A stretch of 64,000 nt of DNA. It comes from Bradyrhizobium sp. GTDB taxonomy: Bacteria; Pseudomonadota; Alphaproteobacteria; Rhizobiales; Xanthobacteraceae. The notes under the pieces are model-generated. The model searched no databases, was not told where the DNA came from, and worked only from the letters and a program-made list of their open reading frames with translations. Of the stretch, positions 15,513-52,945 are shown piece by piece. Location: positions 3,722-67,721 of the forward strand of contig NZ_JAUYQU010000288.1 in NCBI RefSeq assembly GCF_030697065.1, in the 5' to 3' direction. The position numbers and the translations under genes were made by a program. Position 1 is the first letter of the stretch. Each line of letters opens with the position of its first letter.

Positions 15513-15749
15513 ATGATGCGAAAATTTCTCGTTGCACTCACACTCTTGTCCGTATCGGTTCCGGCAGGCGCCATCGCCCAGCAGCGCGGCGGCACCCCGC
15601 AAGAGCAGGCGGCCTGTTCGCGCGACGTTCAGCGCCACTGCCGTCCGGTCATCGACCAGGGCGACTTCACCATCCTGGCCTGCCTGCAGCAGAACCGTCC
15701 CAAAATCAGCAAGGCCTGCGACCGGGTCCTGAAAAGCCACGGCCAATAA
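15513..15749 (+). CDS. Small secreted cysteine-rich protein
   Basis: 78 aa; signal peptide ending AIAQQ; four Cys (AACSRDVQRHC...ILACLQQN...ISKAC). Confidence 0.8.
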   Translation: MMRKFLVALTLLSVSVPAGAIAQQRGGTPQEQAACSRDVQRHCRPVIDQGDFTILACLQQNRPKISKACDRVLKSHGQ

Positions 15750-44285: not shown

Positions 44286-45734
44286 CTACGCCTCTCGCGC
44301 CGATTTCCGCAGGATTGCGGACGCTATCCTGAGGTCATCGACGAAGCGTTGATATTCCAGCGCTTTTGCGTCCGCGTCTGGTAGCCGCAACAGATAGGAC
44401 GGATGCACCGTAGCGAGGGCCTTGGTGCCGTTATCGAGATCGAGCAAGCGGCCGCGGGTCTTGTTGATCCGCATGATCCTGCCGAACACGGTTTGCGCCG
44501 CGGTGGCGCCCATCGCCACCACCAGGTCGGGTTTGATCGACGCAAGTTCGCGTTCGTACCATGGCCGGCATGCCCTGATTTCCGACGCACTCGGTTTCTG
44601 GTGCAGGCGGATTTTTCCACGCGGCACGAACTTGAAATGCTTGACGGCATTGGTGACGTAAACCTTGTCGCGCGCGATGCCGGCTTGCTCCAGAGCCCGG
44701 TCGAGCATCTGGCCGGCAGGTCCCACGAACGGCTTTCCTGCAAGGTCTTCCCTGTCGCCGGGCTGCTCGCCGACCAGCATCAAGGTTGCCTGCCGCGGAC
44801 CTTCGCCGAACACGGTCTGGGTCGCGTCTTTCCACAGCGGACAGGCGCGGCAATCGGCGGCCTCCTCGCGCAGCGTCGCGATATCGCCTGATGGGATTGG
44901 ATGTTGACGCGGCACGGCTGGTTCCGGCCGCTTCTGCGGCTTGTGCGGCGCAGTTGCGGCATTGGCGATCATGGCGCCTGTCAGGCGTTCCGCGCCTTCG
45001 ATCAAGGGCTTGATCAGCGAAGCCTCCGGCAGGTTCCGCCAATATTTCTTCGGCATCTCCTTCTGCATGGCCTTCGCCTTGAGCCGCGCAGGGTTGAAAA
45101 TGCTGGCGTAATAACGCCGCCAGGTTTCTTCCAGCCGGTCTTCCGTCGGCGCGTCGGCCCTGGATACGCCCGGCGTGATCGAGATGGCATGCCCGTCCCA
45201 ATGCGCGCACGCTTCCGGCGTCAGGATCGACCACGCCATGTCGGCGAACCGGCGCGCGAAAAACGGCGCCGCCAGTTCGACGATGTGATGCTCCGGCTCG
45301 AACCAGGCCACGTAATGGGAATTTTGCTCGCGGCCGATTGCACGGAAGCGGACGAAGGCGTGCATCTTGTGCTCGTCGCGGTGTACGGCCCGGGTCATCG
45401 CCATGACCTGCGCGACGTCGGGATCGGTCGCGACATCGAGCAGATCGTGATTGCGTGGCAGCCGCCACAGCAGGCGGTAGAGCAGCGCAAACCGTTCGGG
45501 ATGGCGGTGCAGGATCGCCGATTGCGCGAGATCGACGAATTTGGCCGGTACGCTGAACGTGCCTGATGGGGTTTGCAGCGGCTGTGCGTCGTCAGGCGGC
45601 TCGAACAATTCGGGCTGGCCGCCGCGCACGCACCATGTCACCTCTTCCGGCTTGACCTCGTTCAGCACGAGCGCCCGCGCCGCTTGCCGCCAGCCGTCGA
45701 AATCCGTTTCGCTGTCGAGCGTGATGTGCCTCAA
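44286..45734 (-). CDS. DUF4130 (TIGR03915-like) fused to a UdgX-type family-4 uracil-DNA glycosylase
   Basis: N-terminal V.RD.HKMHAFVRFR, WFEP.HHIV...APFFARRF..M.WSILTP, WRRYY.SIFNPARLK..AM..EMPKKYW.NLPEA. C-terminal CRACPL, TQTVFGEG, GEQPGD.ED..G.PFVGPAG, TNAVKHFKF, RGKIRLHQKP, HPSYLLR. Confidence 0.9.
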   Translation of the reverse strand: MRHITLDSETDFDGWRQAARALVLNEVKPEEVTWCVRGGQPELFEPPDDAQPLQTPSGTFSVPAKFVDLAQSAILHRHPERFALLYRLLWRLPRNHDLLDVATDPDVAQVMAMTRAVHRDEHKMHAFVRFRAIGREQNSHYVAWFEPEHHIVELAAPFFARRFADMAWSILTPEACAHWDGHAISITPGVSRADAPTEDRLEETWRRYYASIFNPARLKAKAMQKEMPKKYWRNLPEASLIKPLIEGAERLTGAMIANAATAPHKPQKRPEPAVPRQHPIPSGDIATLREEAADCRACPLWKDATQTVFGEGPRQATLMLVGEQPGDREDLAGKPFVGPAGQMLDRALEQAGIARDKVYVTNAVKHFKFVPRGKIRLHQKPSASEIRACRPWYERELASIKPDLVVAMGATAAQTVFGRIMRINKTRGRLLDLDNGTKALATVHPSYLLRLPDADAKALEYQRFVDDLRIASAILRKSAREA

Positions 45735-46969
45735 AATCCAAACCCCAGTTGCGTCGCCTTCGGCTTGAATCGCTCCGCCAGCCGTGCGCCATCCAGCAGA
45801 TTCGGTGACGGCCGGTGATCGCTGAGAACAATGAAGGGCAGGGCCTTGTTCCGGGGAATGTGCAGGCGGGCGAGATCGGCAGCACGGATTGATGTGATCC
45901 GCCTTGTGGCGATGATGCGGTCCACCGCCCTGGTGCCGAAGCCGGGGACGCGCAATAGGTCCTCGCGGCTGGCGCGGTTGACGTCGAGCGGAAATCGCTC
46001 GCGATGCCGCAGCGCCCAGGCCAGTTTCGGATCGATGTCGAGCGACAGCATGCCGGCGGTTTTGTCGACGATCTCGCCGACATCGAACCCGTAAAACCGC
46101 ATCAGCCAGTCGGCCTGATAAAGCCGGTGTTCCCTGATCAGTGGCGGCGCGCTCAGGGGCAGAGCGTGACTGGCATCGGGGATCGGGCTGAACGCGGAGT
46201 AATAGACCCGCTTGAGCTTGTAGGAGCCGTACAGATTGGCGCTGGTGTTGAGGATGGTCTGGTCGTTGGCGGAATCGGCGCCAATGATCATCTGGGTGCT
46301 CTGGCCGGCCGGCGCGAATTTCGCTGCGGTGTTGCCCTTCGGCGTAACCTTGCGGCCTTCGCGTGCTTCATCGAGCCTCAAACGCAGCCGGCCCATGGTG
46401 CGGCGGATCGCGCGCACGTCTTTCTCCGGGGCGAGCCTGGCGAGGCTGGCTTCTTCCGGTACTTCGATATTGATGCTGAGACGGTCGGCATAGTGGCCGG
46501 CTTCCGCGATCAGCGCGTCGTCGGCTTCCGGAATGGTTTTGAGATGGATGTAACCGCGAAAATGATGTTCCTCGCGCAGCTTGCGCGCGACGCCGACCAC
46601 CTGCTCCATGGTGTAGTCGGCACTGCGGATGATGCCCGAGGAAAGAAACAATCCCTCGATGTAGTTGCGACGATAGAAGTCGAGAGTCAGTTTGACGACT
46701 TCATCGACGGTGAAGCGGGCGCGCGGCACGTTGCTGCTGGCGCGGTTGACGCAATAAAGGCAGTCGTAATTGCAGGCGTTGGTGAGCAGGATCTTCAGCA
46801 GCGAGATGCAGCGGCCATCCGGCGCGTAGGAATGGCAGATGCCCATGCCCTCGGTCGAGCCGACGCCCTTGCCATCGCGGCTGTCGCGCCTTTCGGTGCC
46901 GCTGGACGCGCAGGACGCGTCATATTTGGCAGCATCCGCCAGGATCTCCAGTTTACGCTGCACATCCAT
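45731..46969 (-). CDS. Putative DNA modification/repair radical SAM protein with HhH motif (TIGR03916-like)
   Basis: KL.ILADAAKYDASC.SSG, GICHSY.PDGRCISLLKIL.TN.C.YDC.YC, NYIEGLFLSSG, REHRLYQADWL.RFYGF, VN.A.RE.LLRVPG.G; ATGA overlap with the UDG fusion. Confidence 0.92.
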   Translation of the reverse strand: MDVQRKLEILADAAKYDASCASSGTERRDSRDGKGVGSTEGMGICHSYAPDGRCISLLKILLTNACNYDCLYCVNRASSNVPRARFTVDEVVKLTLDFYRRNYIEGLFLSSGIIRSADYTMEQVVGVARKLREEHHFRGYIHLKTIPEADDALIAEAGHYADRLSINIEVPEEASLARLAPEKDVRAIRRTMGRLRLRLDEAREGRKVTPKGNTAAKFAPAGQSTQMIIGADSANDQTILNTSANLYGSYKLKRVYYSAFSPIPDASHALPLSAPPLIREHRLYQADWLMRFYGFDVGEIVDKTAGMLSLDIDPKLAWALRHRERFPLDVNRASREDLLRVPGFGTRAVDRIIATRRITSIRAADLARLHIPRNKALPFIVLSDHRPSPNLLDGARLAERFKPKATQLGFGF

Positions 46970-47050
46970 CCGAAATCCCTTTGATTCCATTCATGAATCG
47001 GCTGGATGCCGATCCTGATTGACTCTCTCGTCCCTATTAGCTTTATATTA

Positions 47051-47065
47051 GAACATATCATGAAC
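47051..47065. promoter_or_regulatory. Alphaproteobacterial LexA (SOS) box
   Basis: GAAC-ATATCAT-GAAC (GAAC-N7-GAAC; GTTC-N7-GTTC on the minus strand) in the 156-bp divergent gap. TTGACT (47019) and TATATT (47044) lie just upstream on the plus strand. Confidence 0.9.
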
Positions 47066-47125
47066 AAATGAGCCAGCTTCTGGTTCTCTCGAACCAGTGA
47101 CGGCCACCACCCAGGGGAACGGCGC

Positions 47126-47950
47126 ATGACCGGCGCACGCACGAACACGCTTGCGAGTTTGCGCGGCAGCATCGAGCGCATCGAGGCGCATGCCGACGCG
47201 TCGGCGCCTGCGCGCGTGGCGCTCGGGCATGCGGAGGCCGATGCGACGCTGCAGGGCGGTCTCGCGCCGGCCGCGGTGCACGAGGTATTTGCCGAGGGAC
47301 GGCAGAGCGCCGCGGCGACCGGGTTCATCGCAGGCCTTGCGGGACTCGCCAGCCTCGTAAGCCACGCGGGGCGCGCGGGCTACGCGGCGGCACGGCGGCC
47401 CCTGGTGTGGATCCGGCAGGATTTTGCCGAGATCGAATCCGGCGCGCTGTCGATGGCCGGCCTTGCCGAACTCGGCCTCGATCCGCGCCGCGTGGTGACC
47501 GTGCGCGCCGCCGACGTCGACGCCGCGCTGCGGACCGCCGCCGACGCGCTGGCCTGCGATGCGCTGGGCGCGGTGGTGCTGGAAGTCTGGGGCGAAGCCC
47601 GACAGTTCGATCTCGTCGCCAGCCGGAAGCTGACGCTGGCGGCGCAGGCCTCCGGCGTCACCGGATTGTTGCTGCGGGTGGCGGCGCAGCCCCAGCCCTC
47701 GACGGCGGAGACGCGATGGATCGTGCGCGCGGCACATTCGCCGCCCGCCTCGGTCGGGAGCGCGTGGGGCGCGCCGGTGTTCGACGCGCAACTCGTCCGC
47801 AATCGTCATGGCCCTGTCGGGCGGTGGATCATGGAATGGAAATGTGATGAGTGCCTTTTCGCGAAACCGTCGGCGTATCCTCAGCCTGTGGCTGCCGCGC
47901 CTGCCCATCGACCGCATCAAGCGCGCGCGCCGGAGCGCCGCGCCGGGTAA
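47126..47950 (+). CDS. imuA: ImuA (RecA-like mutasome accessory)
   Basis: LGH...DA.L.GGL...AVHEVF, LVWIRQD, GLAELGLDP.R, ALAC..LGAVVLE.WG, SRKL.LAA..SG, STAETRW.V.AA.S; first gene of imuA-imuB-dnaE2. Confidence 0.88.
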   Translation: MTGARTNTLASLRGSIERIEAHADASAPARVALGHAEADATLQGGLAPAAVHEVFAEGRQSAAATGFIAGLAGLASLVSHAGRAGYAAARRPLVWIRQDFAEIESGALSMAGLAELGLDPRRVVTVRAADVDAALRTAADALACDALGAVVLEVWGEARQFDLVASRKLTLAAQASGVTGLLLRVAAQPQPSTAETRWIVRAAHSPPASVGSAWGAPVFDAQLVRNRHGPVGRWIMEWKCDECLFAKPSAYPQPVAAAPAHRPHQARAPERRAG

Positions 47951-49505
47951 CCATACGAACACTGCGCCCCCTCTCCCGCTTGCGGGGGAGGGCGGGGGTG
48001 GGGGTGCCGCCGCGAGTCCTGAAGACGATCCATGCATCGTCGTCGCCAAACAAAACAACGCGCTGCAGATTTTCGCGCTCGATGACGCCGCAGCGCGTTT
48101 TGGTCTTTCGATCGGCCTGCCGCTCGCCAACGCCCGCGCCATCTGTCCGCAATTAAAAGTGTTCGATGCCGATGAAGCCGCCGACGCCAGGGCATTGAGC
48201 GACATCGCCACCTGGTGCGACCGCTTCACCCCGCTGGTGGCGCTGGATCGCCCGCATGGCCTTTTTCTCGACATTTCCGGCTGCGCCCATCTGTTCGGCG
48301 GCGAGGCTGCGCTGATGCAGATGGTATGCGGCGCGCTGACCCGGCAGGGTTTTGCCGTCAGCGCCGCGATCGCGGGGACATCGATCTGCGCGCGCACCAT
48401 GACGCGTCATGTCTCCGGCCGCATCGTGCCGGATGGCGGTGAGGCCGAGGCGGTAAGGCCGTTGCCGGTCGCAGCACTCGGCGCCGATGACGCCATCACC
48501 CGCGGCCTGCGCCGCGCCGGGCTGAAGACCATCGGCGATGTGGCGTCGCGCGCCCGCCACGAAATCACGGCGCGTTTCGGCGATGATTTTACGGTCCTGC
48601 TGGAGCAGGCGCTGGGGCAGGGCGACGCGCCGATCAGCCCGTTGAAACCGCTGCCGGATTTCATCGTCGAGAAGCGGTTTGCCGAACCGGTCGCCACCGA
48701 AGGCGTGATATCCGCGACCCTGTCCCGGCTGGCTGGAATGCTGGTCGTGGCGATGGACCGGCAGGGCAAGGGCGCGCGGCGGCTGGAGGCCCATTTCTTC
48801 CGTACCGACGGCGCGGTGCGCGCGATTGCGGTCGACACCGGGCAGCCCGTCACCCGGCCCGAGGTGATCGACCGGCTGTTTCGCGAGCGGCTCGATGCGT
48901 TGCACGATCCGCTCGATCCCGGTTTCGGCTTCGATCTAATTCGCCTGTCGGCCAGTCGCGTCGAGATCGTGGTGCAGCAACAGCACGATCTCGATGCCAA
49001 TGTGCACGACAATGACGAGTTGACGGCCCTGATCGATCGCATCGCCGCGCGGATCGGCGGACAGCGCGTGGTCGTGCACCTGCCCCAGGACACCCATATT
49101 CCGGAACGCGCGGTAAAGGCTGTGCCGGCGCAGCATCATCTGGCCGCGGCGCGGCAGGCGGCGTGGCCGGCCCGGGAGGAGAGCGAACCGCCGTTGCGGC
49201 CGCTGCGGCTGTTCGCGCGACCGGAAGCGATCAAGGTGATCGCGGAAGTGCCGGATGGCCCACCGGCGTGGTTTCAGTGGCGGCGGGCGTCCCACACGGT
49301 GATGCGCGTCGAGGGCCCGGAGCGCGTCGCCATGGAATGGTGGCGATCGCCGGAAGCGATGCTGACGCGCGATTATTTCCGCGTCGAGGACGAAACCGGC
49401 CTGCGGTTCTGGCTCTACCGCGACGGTCTGTACGATCGCGAGATCGCGCAGCGCGAGGGCGAAATCGTTCAGCCGAACTGGTTCGTGCACGGGCTGTTCG
49501 CATGA
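47847..49505 (+). CDS. imuB: ImuB (Y-family polymerase-like, catalytically inactive)
   Basis: RILSLWLP.LP.DR, G....ARA..P.L, L...CDRFTPLVA.D...GL.LDI.GC.HLFGGE, RPLRL..RPE, GPER...EWW, RDY..VED..G.R.WLYR, W..HG.FA. Confidence 0.92.
   Translation: MSAFSRNRRRILSLWLPRLPIDRIKRARRSAAPGNHTNTAPPLPLAGEGGGGGAAASPEDDPCIVVAKQNNALQIFALDDAAARFGLSIGLPLANARAICPQLKVFDADEAADARALSDIATWCDRFTPLVALDRPHGLFLDISGCAHLFGGEAALMQMVCGALTRQGFAVSAAIAGTSICARTMTRHVSGRIVPDGGEAEAVRPLPVAALGADDAITRGLRRAGLKTIGDVASRARHEITARFGDDFTVLLEQALGQGDAPISPLKPLPDFIVEKRFAEPVATEGVISATLSRLAGMLVVAMDRQGKGARRLEAHFFRTDGAVRAIAVDTGQPVTRPEVIDRLFRERLDALHDPLDPGFGFDLIRLSASRVEIVVQQQHDLDANVHDNDELTALIDRIAARIGGQRVVVHLPQDTHIPERAVKAVPAQHHLAAARQAAWPAREESEPPLRPLRLFARPEAIKVIAEVPDGPPAWFQWRRASHTVMRVEGPERVAMEWWRSPEAMLTRDYFRVEDETGLRFWLYRDGLYDREIAQREGEIVQPNWFVHGLFA
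47967..48005 (+). repeat. Palindromic REP-like half-element inside the imuB coding sequence
   Basis: CCCCCTCTCCCGCTTGCGGGGGAGGGCGGGGGTGGGGGT; 11-bp stem 47969-47992 (one G-T); translated in frame as PPLPLAGEGGGGG. Confidence 0.65.
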
Positions 49506-52500
49506 ACGGGCCTGACGCCATGGCCTATGCCGAGATCGGAATCACCACGAATTTCTCGTTCCTGCGCGGCGGATCGCATCCGCAGGAATATGTGCGGGAG
49601 GCGAGCGACCTGCGGCTTGCGGCCATCGGTATTGCCGATCGCAACACCTTGGCCGGGGTGGTGCGGGCCTACAAGGAACTGGAAAACCCCGAGCTCACCT
49701 GCAAGCCGAAACTTCTGATCGGTTCGCGCCTCGTCTTCATCGACGGCACGCCCGATATCCTGGTCTATCCGCGCGACCGCGCCGCCTACGGCCGGCTATG
49801 CCAGTTGCTGACCCGCGGCAAGCGCGGCGGCGATGCCGACAAGACCGAAAAGGGCGAATGTCGGCTCGGTCTCGACGATCTCCTCGAATTCGCCGCAGGG
49901 CAGCTGCTGGTTCTGACGCTGCCGCACCGCTTCGAGCCGGAAAATACCTTCAAAATTCTGGACCGGTTGCGGCGCAGCCGCGCCGATGGTGTGTGGCTGG
50001 CAGCCAGCCTGCTGTACCGCGGCGATGACAGGCGCCGCCTCGCGCGGCTGCAGCGGATCGCGGCCACCGCCGGGGTACCGCTGCTGGCGACCAACGAGGT
50101 GCTGTATCACCATCCCGCCCGGCGTCCGCTGCAGGATGTTCTCACCTGCATCCGCGAGAAGGCCACCATCGAGGTTATTGGAAAGCGGCTTGAAGCCAAC
50201 GCGGAGCGCTATCTCAAGCCGGCGCACGAAATGGCGCGGCTGTTTCGCGACATGCCGGAGGCGCTGGTGGAAACCATGCGGTTCGCGGACCGCATCGATT
50301 TCTCGCTGGACCAGCTGAAATACCAGTATCCCGACGAGCCGGTGCCGCCGGGCAAGACCGCGCAGCAGCATCTGGAAGACCTGACATGGGCCGGCGTCAG
50401 GCAATATTTTTCCGGCGAGATTGACGACAGGCTTCGCGCTACCCTTCGCAAGGAGCTCGACCTCATCGCCGAACTGAACTACGCGCATTATTTTCTCACC
50501 GTGCACGACATCGTCCGGTATGCCCGAAGCCAGCACATCCTCTGCCAGGGCCGGGGCTCGGCGGCCAATTCAGCCGTCTGCTACGTACTCGGCGTCACCT
50601 CGGTCGATCCGACCAAGGTCGATCTGCTGTTCGAGCGGTTCATTTCCAGGGAGCGGCTGGAGCCGCCCGACATCGACGTCGATTTCGAGCATTCGCGGCG
50701 CGAGGAGGTGATGCAATATGTCTACCGCCGCTATGGCCGCCATCGCGCCGCGATCATTGCCACCGTGATTCATTACCGGCCGCGCAGCGCGATCCGCGAC
50801 GTCGGCAAGGCACTGGGGCTGACGGAAGACGTCACCGCCGCGCTGGCCGATACCGTGTGGGGCAGCTGGGGCAAGGGTCTCAACGACATGCAGGTGCGGC
50901 AGGCCGGGCTCGATCCGCAAAATCCCATGGTCGGGCTCGCGGTCGAACTCGCCACCGAGCTGATCGAATTTCCGCGGCATCTGTCGCAGCATGTCGGCGG
51001 CTATGTGCTGACCCAGGACCGGCTCGACTCCTATGTGCCGATCGGCAATGCCGCGATGGACGATCGCACCTTCATCGAGTGGGACAAGGACGACGTCGAC
51101 GCCCTCAAGATGATGAAGGTGGATGTGCTGGCGCTGGGCATGCTGACCTGCATCCGCAAATGCTTCGACCTGATCGCCGATCACAAAAGCGAGCATTGGG
51201 AACTTGCGTCGGTTCCTCAGGATGTCCCTGAAGTCTACGACATGCTGTGCCGGGGCGAGTCGCTCGGCGTCTTCCAGGTCGAGAGCCGCGCCCAGATGAA
51301 CATGCTGCCGCGGCTGAAGCCGCGGACCTTCTACGATCTCGTCATCGAGGTCGCGATCGTGCGGCCTGGCCCGATCCAGGGCGACATGGTGCATCCCTAT
51401 CTCAGACGACGGAACGGCATCGAGAAGGAGAATTATCCTTCGCCGTCGCCCAATCACGGATCTCCGGATGAGCTCTACAAGGTCCTGCACAAGACGCTCG
51501 GCGTACCCTTGTTTCAGGAGCAGGCGATGCGTATCGCGATCGAGGCGGCAGGGTTTACCCCGGAAGAGGCGAACGGATTGCGCCGTGCGATGGCGACATT
51601 TCGTAATGTCGGCACCATCGGCAATTTCGAAGAGAAGATGACCGGCAACATGATCCGGCGCGGCTACGATCCGGAGTTCGCGAAGAACTGCTTCAACCAG
51701 ATCAAGGGATTCGGTTCTTACGGTTTTCCGGAAAGCCACGCCGCGAGTTTCGCCCAGCTGGTCTATGTCTCGTCATGGCTGAAGCATTTCCACCCCGACG
51801 CGTTCTGCTGCGGGCTTTTGAACTCGCAGCCGATGGGCTTTTACGCCCCGGCGCAGATCGTCGGCGATGCCCGCGCCAACGGCGTCGAGGTGCGCGAGAT
51901 CGACGTGTCGTTCAGCCACGCGCAGAATACGCTGGAGGAGAAAAGCGGCGAGTATTGCGCCGTGCGACTCGGCTTCCGCCAGATCGACGGCTTCAAATGG
52001 GTTGATCCCGATGAGGAACGGTTGAAACAAATTCAACCGTCATTCCGGGATGCGCCGCTTGGCGCAGACCCGGAATCTCGAGATTCCGGGTTCGTCGCTG
52101 TCGCGACGCCCCGAAATGACGGCAATTCCGGCGACTGGGCCGAGCGCATCGTCGCCGCCCGCGCGCGCCGTCCCTTCACCACGCTGGAGGATTTCGCCCG
52201 CGATACCGCGCTCCCAAAGCGCGCGCTGATTCTGCTGGCGGATGCCGATGCGTTCCGTTCCATCGGGCTCGATCGCCGCGCCGCCCTGTGGGCGGTGCGA
52301 CGGCTGCCCGACGACGTGGCGCTGCCGCTGTTCGAAATCGCCGCCGCGCGCGAGCAGCCGGACGAGAACGCGCGGCCGCTGCCGGAAATGCCGCTGTCGG
52401 AGCAGGTGGTCGCCGACTATCAGACCGTCCGGCTTTCGCTGAAGGGCCACCCGATGGAATTTCTGCGGCCGATGCTGACGCGGGAGCGTGTCGTCGCCTG

Positions 52501-52945
52501 CAGGGATGTCTGCCATGCCAACGACAGAAAGCGTGTCCGCTGCGCCGGCGTGGTGCTGGTGCGGCAGCGGCCGGGCAGCGCCAGGGGCGTGGTGTTCATG
52601 ACGCTGGAGGACGAAACCGGCATCGCCAATATCGTGGTGTGGCCGCAGGTGATGGAAGGCTTCCGCAAGGAGGTGATGGGCGCGCGGCTGCTGCTGGTCG
52701 AGGGCTATATCCAGAGTAGTCCCGAACAGGTGACGCATCTGGTCGCGCAACGCCTGACCGACCGCTCCCACGATCTGGTCGGCCTCGCCGAAGACGCGCT
52801 CGGCCGCAGGCATGCCGTGCCGGCCGGGCCCGCGCTGATCGAGCCGCTCAACGACGACCGTCGCGAGCATTCGGACAATCCCGCCCAGAAAATCCGCCAT
52901 CCGCGCAATGTACGGATACTGCCGCCGTCGAGGGATTTTCATTGA
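49502..52945 (+). CDS. dnaE2: Error-prone DNA polymerase DnaE2/ImuC
   Basis: PHP domain (TNFSFLRGGS.P.E), GRGSAANS.VCY, EPPDIDVDFEH, KVDVLALGML, YGFPESHAASF, OB fold (RQRPG.A.GV.F.TLEDETG), C-terminal SRDFH. Confidence 0.97.
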   Translation: MNGPDAMAYAEIGITTNFSFLRGGSHPQEYVREASDLRLAAIGIADRNTLAGVVRAYKELENPELTCKPKLLIGSRLVFIDGTPDILVYPRDRAAYGRLCQLLTRGKRGGDADKTEKGECRLGLDDLLEFAAGQLLVLTLPHRFEPENTFKILDRLRRSRADGVWLAASLLYRGDDRRRLARLQRIAATAGVPLLATNEVLYHHPARRPLQDVLTCIREKATIEVIGKRLEANAERYLKPAHEMARLFRDMPEALVETMRFADRIDFSLDQLKYQYPDEPVPPGKTAQQHLEDLTWAGVRQYFSGEIDDRLRATLRKELDLIAELNYAHYFLTVHDIVRYARSQHILCQGRGSAANSAVCYVLGVTSVDPTKVDLLFERFISRERLEPPDIDVDFEHSRREEVMQYVYRRYGRHRAAIIATVIHYRPRSAIRDVGKALGLTEDVTAALADTVWGSWGKGLNDMQVRQAGLDPQNPMVGLAVELATELIEFPRHLSQHVGGYVLTQDRLDSYVPIGNAAMDDRTFIEWDKDDVDALKMMKVDVLALGMLTCIRKCFDLIADHKSEHWELASVPQDVPEVYDMLCRGESLGVFQVESRAQMNMLPRLKPRTFYDLVIEVAIVRPGPIQGDMVHPYLRRRNGIEKENYPSPSPNHGSPDELYKVLHKTLGVPLFQEQAMRIAIEAAGFTPEEANGLRRAMATFRNVGTIGNFEEKMTGNMIRRGYDPEFAKNCFNQIKGFGSYGFPESHAASFAQLVYVSSWLKHFHPDAFCCGLLNSQPMGFYAPAQIVGDARANGVEVREIDVSFSHAQNTLEEKSGEYCAVRLGFRQIDGFKWVDPDEERLKQIQPSFRDAPLGADPESRDSGFVAVATPRNDGNSGDWAERIVAARARRPFTTLEDFARDTALPKRALILLADADAFRSIGLDRRAALWAVRRLPDDVALPLFEIAAAREQPDENARPLPEMPLSEQVVADYQTVRLSLKGHPMEFLRPMLTRERVVACRDVCHANDRKRVRCAGVVLVRQRPGSARGVVFMTLEDETGIANIVVWPQVMEGFRKEVMGARLLLVEGYIQSSPEQVTHLVAQRLTDRSHDLVGLAEDALGRRHAVPAGPALIEPLNDDRREHSDNPAQKIRHPRNVRILPPSRDFH
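52037..52122. repeat. 86-bp palindromic RPE/MITE-like element inserted in frame in dnaE2
   Basis: Terminal IR CCGTCATTCCGGG / CCCGAAATGACGG (1 mismatch); central perfect 24-bp palindrome ACCCGGAATCTCGAGATTCCGGGT (52068-52091); side hairpins TGCGCC-GCTT-GGCGCA and CGTCGC-TGTC-GCGACG. Confidence 0.85.

Follow-up and report, generated by a model that had tools for sequence, protein, structure and literature searches.

We report on a divergent locus in a 64,000-nt stretch of Bradyrhizobium sp. DNA (RefSeq assembly GCF_030697065.1, contig NZ_JAUYQU010000288.1, positions 3,722 to 67,721; hereafter the window), in which an operon for a radical S-adenosylmethionine (SAM) protein and a DUF4130-UdgX fusion stands head-to-head with the mutasome cassette imuA-imuB-dnaE2. 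The explanation that we favor, with moderate confidence, is that the radical SAM protein (rSAM below) and its partner form a clamp-tethered, SOS-induced lesion-processing accessory to the mutasome, the locus being read as two divergent units. The evidence lies in the LexA boxes that precede the rSAM gene here and in other families, in its repeated linkage to the mutasome genes, and in a clamp-type motif at the rSAM C-terminus. The genes and domains concerned are as follows, with scores from family hidden Markov model (HMM) scans.

44286-45734, minus strand: DUF4130-UdgX fusion gene, 482 aa, matching TIGR03915 (233.9 bits, cut-off 112.25), TIGR03914 (336.5 bits, cut-off 189.95), PF13566, and PF03167
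45021-45716, minus strand: DUF4130 (TIGR03915) domain, residues 7-238 of the fusion
44325-45017, minus strand: UdgX-type family-4 uracil-DNA glycosylase (UDG) domain, residues 240-470 of the fusion (phmmer against PDB entries 6ajo and 6ail)
45731-46969, minus strand: gene for rSAM, a protein of the radical SAM/helix-hairpin-helix (HhH) family, 412 aa, alternative ATG at 46990, matching TIGR03916 (570.9 bits, cut-off 343.5) and PF04055
47126-47950, plus strand: imuA, RecA-fold accessory protein, 274 aa, placed before imuB, with a weak NF033429 match
47847-49505, plus strand: imuB, Y-family-like and non-catalytic, start uncertain (47808 or 47847), recognized by PF00817, PF11799, a weak DUF6504 match, and codon-position GC
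49502-52945, plus strand: dnaE2, error-prone polymerase, 1147 aa from an ATG overlapping the imuB stop, matching NF004225 (1568 bits, cut-off 939, the match beginning at residue 119 of the long open reading frame)

The HMM scans and open reading frames (ORFs) uphold the gene set, families, and head-to-head layout of the five genes as described in the original prediction, with a weak model match for imuA. ImuB scores above the cut-offs of both PF00817 (IMS, 42 bits) and PF11799 (IMS_C, 24 bits), and slightly below that of DUF6504 (22.7 bits, cut-off 24.2). ImuA reaches 35.3 bits (E = 1e-8) against the NF033429 equivalog model, under its cut-off of 150, and is therefore named by position, size, and clade orthology only; its orthologues are 69-85% identical. 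For rSAM the ORF list opens a longer frame at 46990, but relatives align from its residue 8 and are annotated at 413 aa, and we therefore take 46969 as the conserved start. In the left arm the stop codon of rSAM and the TTG with which DUF4130-UdgX begins share bases (TTTGA), as do the imuB stop and the dnaE2 ATG in the right arm (ATGA), so that each arm looks like one translationally coupled unit; for the left arm this suggests coupling of rSAM with DUF4130-UdgX. The neighbors of the locus have metabolic roles (a GMC oxidoreductase, a convergent M20 peptidase, and CoA-transferase-family genes), and we therefore limit it to these five genes. As a separate observation, imuA and imuB share ∼100-140 nt (47808-47950), at the 3' end of the one and the 5' end of the other, in different frames, both of which are kept in relatives.

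The rSAM ATG (46969, minus strand) and the imuA ATG (47126, plus strand) flank a 156-bp spacer with the following features.

47051-47065, plus strand: LexA box GAACATATCATGAAC, 2 nt after the -10 hexamer, the sole such box in the spacer and invariant in the genus
47019-47048, plus strand: predicted imuA promoter, TTGACT (47019-47024), an 18-nt spacer, and TTATAT (47043-47048)
46983-46999, no strand: GATTC-N7-GAATC palindrome (two GANTC sites) beside the AAAGGGA ribosome-binding site of the leftward operon

The box is a perfect GAAC-N7-GAAC, 81 nt from the rSAM start and 60 nt from the imuA start; box, spacer length, and distances were all reproduced from the sequence as first described, as was the identification of the box with the alphaproteobacterial form of the LexA operator, the same box type preceding recA, radA, ssb, and uvrA in this genome. 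The bare pattern is of little weight by itself, since the window has 2 matches where 1.66 are expected, and the 5.27-Mb assembly has 164. Only ∼25 of the 164 have an AT-rich spacer, and these include sites upstream of the genes scoring as recA, radA, ssb, and uvrA, so that the motif behaves as an SOS operator here. Given its AT-rich spacer, intergenic position, company of recA, radA, ssb, and uvrA, and genus-wide invariance, the box at 47051-47065 is not a chance match. The second match in the window (15616-15630, minus strand) has a GC-rich spacer and was set aside as probably due to chance.

We compared the spacer among 25 genomes of the genus. The box is invariant in all 23 with a readable spacer, while the sequence between conserved blocks varies. 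Aligned spacers of the 13 rSAM-positive genomes share two invariant blocks, TTGAC (reading TTGACT in all but one) and the 41-nt GTTAGCTTTATATTAGAACATATCATGAACAAATGAGCCAG; the latter was also found in 10 further genomes without an rSAM gene. A consensus promoter and terminator scan of 46800-47300 called nothing, and it is from conservation that we infer TTGACT-N18-TTATAT to be a sigma-70-type imuA promoter. The LexA box begins 2 nt after its -10 hexamer and would therefore cover the predicted imuA transcription start. SOS control of imuABC is almost certain. A search of the spacer for a second, degenerate LexA box gave only weak matches with 1-2 mismatches near the imuA start.

The spacer also holds three conserved GANTC (CcrM-type methylation) sites, against an estimated ∼0.5 expected from base composition. 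Two of them form the GATTC-N7-GAATC palindrome beside the leftward ribosome-binding site, which lies at a fixed distance from the -35 element in rSAM-positive and rSAM-less genomes of the genus alike; the third (47021-47025) overlaps the imuA -35 element (TTGACTC). These sites may represent a cell-cycle or methylation input, or a remnant of an ancestral rSAM LexA box. Examined by copy number as a candidate regulon motif, the palindrome has 5 genome copies (∼1.8 expected) and is not widespread in the genome.

For the leftward arm, the case for SOS control comes from comparison. In an even sample of 300 alphaproteobacterial genomes, 16 carry TIGR03916; these 16 loci and two from the same order gave 18 loci for study. 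Of the 18, which belong to other alphaproteobacterial families, 15 have a perfect GAAC-N7-GAAC no more than 60 nt before the rSAM start, and one more has an upstream box with a single mismatch. The rSAM gene's own box elsewhere lies 7-59 nt upstream of the gene; chance expectation at the genomic density of the pattern is ∼0.003 matches per 100 bp. Only one of the 18 loci has an imu gene within 8 kb. Because boxes are present in 15 of 18 loci whatever the neighbors, we regard the rSAM operon as an SOS gene in its own right in most alphaproteobacteria. According to PMC8565304, earlier work (Erill 2016 and da Rocha 2008, as cited there) reported SOS regulation of a COG1573-COG4277 uracil-glycosylase system in Alphaproteobacteria and Verrucomicrobia, to which that paper adds Bacteroidetes. 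PMC7739468 places “a radical SAM protein,” its family not named, in Gram-positive and Balneolaeota LexA regulons, and the DdaA damage regulon of Acinetobacter includes both the rSAM gene and the TIGR03915 gene. Judged against this background, damage induction of the left arm through SOS control is likely in the present genome too.

Linkage of the rSAM pair to the mutasome is conserved in the genus, where all 13 genomes with an rSAM gene have it head-to-head with imuA-imuB. A wider survey took the 80 best rSAM relatives from species-representative genomes, and there the head-to-head layout recurred in Bradyrhizobium and Methylopila, so that the conserved arrangement sought in a synteny survey was indeed found; in two Hansschlegelia genomes imuA lies 7-9 kb from rSAM. 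A second layout runs on one strand as imuA-imuB, LexA box, and rSAM-DUF4130/UdgX-dnaE2, with dnaE2 transcribed behind the rSAM pair. This embedded layout is complete, with five genes, in Porphyrobacter and one genome of the class sample, and partial in two Erythrobacter loci, a Cypionkella metagenome-assembled genome (MAG), and one proteobacterial MAG, where contigs end or imuA-imuB was undetected. The rSAM pair has thus become linked with the error-prone polymerase cassette on at least two independent occasions (head-to-head and embedded), from which we argue for a functional link between them. Within the class sample, DnaE2 scores above cut-off in 11 of 16 rSAM-positive genomes and in 108 of 284 others (odds ratio 3.6, p = 0.018). 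Within 10 kb of the rSAM gene, most loci from Beta- and Gammaproteobacteria and Verrucomicrobia show no imu gene. Read across these genomes, the left arm is an accessory to the mutasome and not an obligate subunit of it.

A further tie to the replication machinery is suggested by the end of the rSAM protein.

45734-45751, minus strand: QLGFGF, predicted beta-sliding-clamp-binding motif of the hexapeptide QLxLxL class, at the extreme rSAM C-terminus

The window rSAM and its close kin have the QLGFGF end in common. For 96 rSAM relatives (Alpha-, Beta-, and Gammaproteobacteria and Verrucomicrobia) we read the last 12 residues at the actual C-terminus. A beta-clamp-type motif occurs in 79 of the 96, at the very end in 49; the commonest tails are QLSLF (17), QLELF (10), and QASLF (7), followed by QLDLF, QLSLL, QMALAL, and others, and most of the 17 misses are near-variants (QPSLF, QGGLF, QPDLF). 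As background we took 3768 long, high-GC3 ORFs of this genome, of which only 4 (0.1%) match the motif patterns within their last 12 residues. The motif is kept where the DUF4130 gene is not adjacent, and it is therefore not a by-product of the gene overlap. In the AlphaFold2 model of rSAM the predicted local distance difference test score (pLDDT) falls over the last ∼20 residues to <50, as expected of a flexible tether. By simple pattern search, ImuB, ImuA, DnaE2, and DUF4130-UdgX have no clamp motif.

To cover distant relatives, a profile search of 1.84 billion representatives yielded 1338 relatives at E ≤ 1e-30, and tails were scored in 44 near-full-length representatives, each <50% identical to the others. 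A beta-type motif occurs in the last 60 residues of 18 of the 44. Eight have instead a motif resembling the PCNA-interacting protein (PIP) box (QKTLGKWW, QASLKRWF, QLKLGEFY, and similar), at or next to the extreme C-terminus in five, and four distant tails fit Q-x-x-L-x-x-W/F-F/W, one of these four belonging to a protein with a named source (Candidatus Woesearchaeota). Two of the eight PIP-like carriers have a named source, Candidatus Woesearchaeota for QASLKRWF and Asgard archaea for the weaker variant QTRIEEHI. The tail thus seems to match the kind of clamp that the host has. Full-text searches of an incomplete literature found no paper linking radical SAM enzymes to clamp-binding motifs, and an earlier description is possible. 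On balance, docking of rSAM on the clamp is more likely than not.

The UdgX domain resembles its characterized namesake closely. It matches Mycobacterium smegmatis UdgX (PDB 6ajo and 6ail) over the whole domain (phmmer, E = 1e-61) and contains GEQPG (motif A), the crosslinking-His loop, and HPSY (the HPS of motif B). His378 (codon 44601-44603) aligns with the crosslinking His109 of 6ajo, in a KIRLH loop two residues shorter than KRRIH. After excising uracil, UdgX remains attached covalently to the abasic site, an irreversible DNA-protein crosslink (PMC4787834). For the other half of the fusion, a preprint of 2026 offers a prediction in which DUF4130 binds rSAM tightly and the complex forms a narrow channel that would suit single-stranded nucleic acid.

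The rSAM protein carries the motif expected of its superfamily.

46751-46774, minus strand: CX3CX2C radical SAM cluster motif CNYDCLYC, with C66, C70, and C73 in the 412-aa numbering

These cysteines are invariant in alignments of 19 and 58 sequences. Three more, C20, C45, and C54 (46808-46912) in the N-terminal extension, are invariant in 58 relatives and are candidate ligands of an auxiliary Fe-S cluster; residues 20-54 form the lowest-confidence region of the AlphaFold2 model, which overall reaches pLDDT 85.9 and a predicted template modeling score (pTM) of 0.87. Pfam HhH models gave no match in rSAM at E ≤ 0.001, and the model has short helices at residues 335-368; PF14520 (HhH) is on record for many rSAM homologues that are 88-93% identical. 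A first homologue search returned only near-identical Bradyrhizobium and Tardiphaga proteins.

Put together, the reading that we favor would run as follows. DNA damage would lead to LexA cleavage and so to induction of both divergent units: rightward imuA-imuB-dnaE2, read from TTGACT-N18-TTATAT with the operator covering the start site, and leftward the coupled rSAM (TIGR03916) and DUF4130-UdgX genes, sharing that operator. The rSAM protein would dock through its C-terminal QLGFGF on beta clamps left at stalled primer ends or gaps, and DUF4130 would supply a channel for single-stranded nucleic acid. Uracil arises readily in exposed single strands, and the UdgX domain would excise it and cap the abasic site through His378; the radical SAM domain may carry out a radical reaction on the DNA lesion or on the adduct. 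ImuA-ImuB-DnaE2 would then extend across what cannot be removed. The idea that one arm processes or shields a lesion and the other bypasses what remains is still an inference, and any particular chemistry proposed for rSAM would be doubtful. More generally, and tentatively, TIGR03916 enzymes might be clients of the sliding clamp (through a beta-clamp motif in Bacteria, through a PIP box in Archaea) that, with DUF4130 and with UdgX where fused, perform a radical transaction on template lesions in single-stranded gaps, the primer end being handed to ImuB-DnaE2. If true, such a clamp-client role would explain why the rSAM pair has twice been wired into mutasome operons.

Several observations weigh against the favored reading. 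QLGFGF is a non-canonical variant of the predicted clamp motif. Foldseek returned only generic radical SAM cores for the rSAM model (MiaB, HydE, PFL-AE, viperin, LipA; TM 0.3-0.4), for which reason we assign no chemistry. Five of the 16 rSAM-positive alphaproteobacterial genomes lack dnaE2, and about half of the genus has lost rSAM, with the DUF4130-UdgX gene intact in 5 and fragmentary in 5 of 10 such genomes, so that the arms are separable; the claim that the five genes form one module thus fails as an obligate one (5 of 16 rSAM-positive genomes without dnaE2, 12 of 25 genus genomes without rSAM). The others concern the shared operator. No leftward promoter for the rSAM arm was recognized in the 46800-47300 scan; the single spacer box reads GAAC towards imuA, while most rSAM boxes elsewhere read towards the rSAM gene; the GATTC-N7-GAATC palindrome sits where other alphaproteobacteria have the rSAM gene's own LexA box; and in Methylopila, where the pair is likewise head-to-head, each arm has its own box.

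These last points are what one would expect if the box controlled imuA only, the rSAM/UdgX arm having lost its own operator by degeneration to GATTC-N7-GAATC and being constitutive or otherwise regulated, with the adjacency a historical remnant: the sole spacer box reads towards imuA, rSAM genes elsewhere have their own box 7-59 nt upstream as in the two-box Methylopila locus, and a conserved palindrome of two GANTC sites occupies the ancestral box position. Yet the spacer has a single AT-rich, -10-like stretch, which any leftward promoter would also need, and the box is 2-3 nt away from it; the invariant block reaches beyond what the imuA promoter needs; and boxes can face either way in this genome, that of uvrA reading away from its gene. 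We consider exclusive control of imuA unlikely. Since the box adjoins this one -10-like stretch, the left arm here probably shares the one operator. Of the original claim that one box drives both arms, SOS membership of both is supported by comparison (boxes in 15 of 18 loci), whereas the single shared box is only plausible, no leftward promoter having been found and Methylopila having two boxes.

The separability of the arms can be followed in detail within the genus. No TIGR03916 match occurs anywhere in 12 of the 25 genomes, and the rSAM gene is split in two more. Ten of the 12 have a readable region upstream of imuA, and there a whole or partial DUF4130-UdgX gene stands head-to-head with imuA across the same regulatory block. 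In one, the first rSAM codons (MDVQPKLEIL) remain fused to the DUF4130 frame, from which we conclude that rSAM was lost through deletion; the deletion junctions vary from lineage to lineage. Among the 10, DUF4130-UdgX is full-length in 5 (with GEQPG, the His loop, and HPSY), split in 2, reduced to DUF4130 in 2, and reduced to the UDG in 1. The ratio of nonsynonymous to synonymous substitution rates (dN/dS) for DUF4130-UdgX is 0.17-0.33 overall and 0.17-0.22 (dS 0.27-0.56) in a clade sharing one deletion junction; by the latter values, the fusion is under purifying selection without its rSAM partner. In contrast to the loss of rSAM in 12 of 25 genomes, imuA was found in 24 of 25 (with imuB wherever the contig reaches), so that the left arm is modular and dispensable. 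In the window, the TIGR03916 gene is paired with an adjacent, overlapping TIGR03915 gene, in keeping with the family description. The reverse pairing fails, five genus genomes keeping TIGR03915-UdgX without any TIGR03916 gene, and these five contradict the description of TIGR03916 and TIGR03915 as always paired.

Such losses could also mean that the left arm is a decaying evolutionary relic that contributes nothing in this genome, as the 12 of 25 genomes without rSAM, the two with split genes, and the several truncated or split DUF4130-UdgX genes might suggest. That is very improbable for the window, where both ORFs are intact with all catalytic motifs, orthologues are 82-93% identical, and DUF4130-UdgX has the low dN/dS of 0.17-0.33 just given.

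The chemistry of rSAM bears on another account, in which the left arm is a direct-reversal repair enzyme of the spore photoproduct lyase (SPL) kind, independent of the mutasome and having only SOS timing in common with it. PMC3765255 names the partner an “SplB-like radical SAM photolyase,” and the absence of dnaE2 from 5 of 16 genomes with the pair would suit such independence. We could not retain that label: no SPL was among the 50 best Foldseek matches, of which MiaB, HydE, PFL-AE, and viperin (TM 0.3-0.4) were best, nor among PDB sequence matches, a search that matched no solved rSAM homologue at all. PMC8565304, moreover, treats SplB (COG1533) as an SOS gene separate from COG4277, and independent fusions into dnaE2 operons speak for more than common timing. 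We rate an SPL-kind activity as improbable.

The crosslinking glycosylase invites a last alternative, that the pair is a damage-induced defense against foreign DNA (e.g. uracil-containing phage DNA) to which UdgX would crosslink. UdgX does make irreversible DNA-protein crosslinks (PMC4787834), and in Moraxellaceae the DNA-damage and anti-phage regulons overlap in a regulon that includes the rSAM pair. The genes flanking the present locus (GMC oxidoreductase, M20 peptidase, CoA-transferase family) are, however, unrelated to DNA metabolism or defense, and the pair is tied to dnaE2 operons and to a host clamp motif and is chromosomally stable in many lineages. A defense role is very improbable here and the least probable of the explanations weighed.

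The lesion-processing accessory that we favor can be set beside several known systems. The closest is the LexA-regulated COG4277-COG1573 operon of Caulobacter, Verrucomicrobia, and Bacteroidetes (PMC8565304), in which the same two families stand in the same order, with rSAM leading, behind an immediately preceding LexA box; the alphaproteobacterial box is the GAAC-N7-GAAC motif found here. Caulobacter crescentus NA1000 has orthologues of the pair. The present operon differs in standing head-to-head with imuA without its own box in the usual position, which leaves one box for both arms; no description of a clamp-type rSAM tail for that operon was found in the literature searched. The rightward arm has the genes, order, overlap or coupling, and LexA box over the promoter of the imuA-imuB-dnaE2 cassettes of Caulobacter crescentus, Pseudomonas, and Mycobacterium, but here there is no attached lexA, a divergent rSAM/UdgX operon adjoins it, dnaE2 has an in-frame insert resembling a repetitive extragenic palindromic (REP) element, and ImuB lacks a canonical clamp-binding motif by simple pattern search. 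UdgX of M. smegmatis (Mycolicibacterium smegmatis) likewise has GEQPG, the loop His, and the HPS motif; ours, known here from its sequence, is fused to DUF4130, has a loop two residues shorter, and is SOS-boxed. The embedded Erythrobacteraceae-type layout involves the same five gene families, LexA motif, and implied functional link, but with dnaE2 co-transcribed with the rSAM pair and two boxes, in place of opposite strands and one box. Finally, established beta-clamp clients (Pol II, Pol IV, UmuC, Hda; QL[SD]LF or QLxLxL) also carry a short conserved motif, which in rSAM stands at the extreme C-terminus after a low-confidence tail; the carrier here is a radical SAM enzyme, and its docking is a sequence-based prediction.

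The proposal that the locus represents an undescribed system does not survive this comparison, LexA control of COG1573-COG4277 (PMC8565304) and a link of DUF4130/rSAM/UDG to SOS mutagenic operons (PMC3765255, published in 2013) being already in print. Both operons, their LexA control, and their loose association are thus already reported. Specific to this locus is the single, probably shared box in a head-to-head layout, conserved through the genus; apparently new for the family are the clamp/PIP tail, the selection on DUF4130-UdgX without rSAM, and the count of independent mutasome fusions. The NCBI family description places the TIGR03916/TIGR03915 pair in roughly a fifth of prokaryotic genomes. 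The pair is damage-switched in several phyla, and the locus, while revealing no new system, makes a long-standing family of unknown function more directly testable. By its clamp-type tail the enzyme probably works at clamps on damaged DNA, which may bear on stress-induced mutagenesis.

Two minor observations concern dnaE2 and the SOS boxes of the wider genome. The insert in dnaE2 is an 86-bp REP-like palindromic element (52037-52122, plus strand) with 13-nt terminal inverted repeats and a perfect 24-bp central palindrome, lying in frame within a variable linker and adding ∼29 residues. It is missing from two Bradyrhizobium relatives, a third having a different insert at the same place, and it has 275 full or partial match segments in the genome (blastn-short). 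At C249:10414-10446, on another contig of the same genome, a pair of neighboring LexA boxes in opposite orientation stands before a hydrophobic ORF of 32 codons, MLKTFVEEAAALASLTLFVGMIAVWAQLIPQL, which in turn lies shortly ahead of dnaE1; its product is a candidate for a small, SOS-induced membrane protein comparable to SidA.

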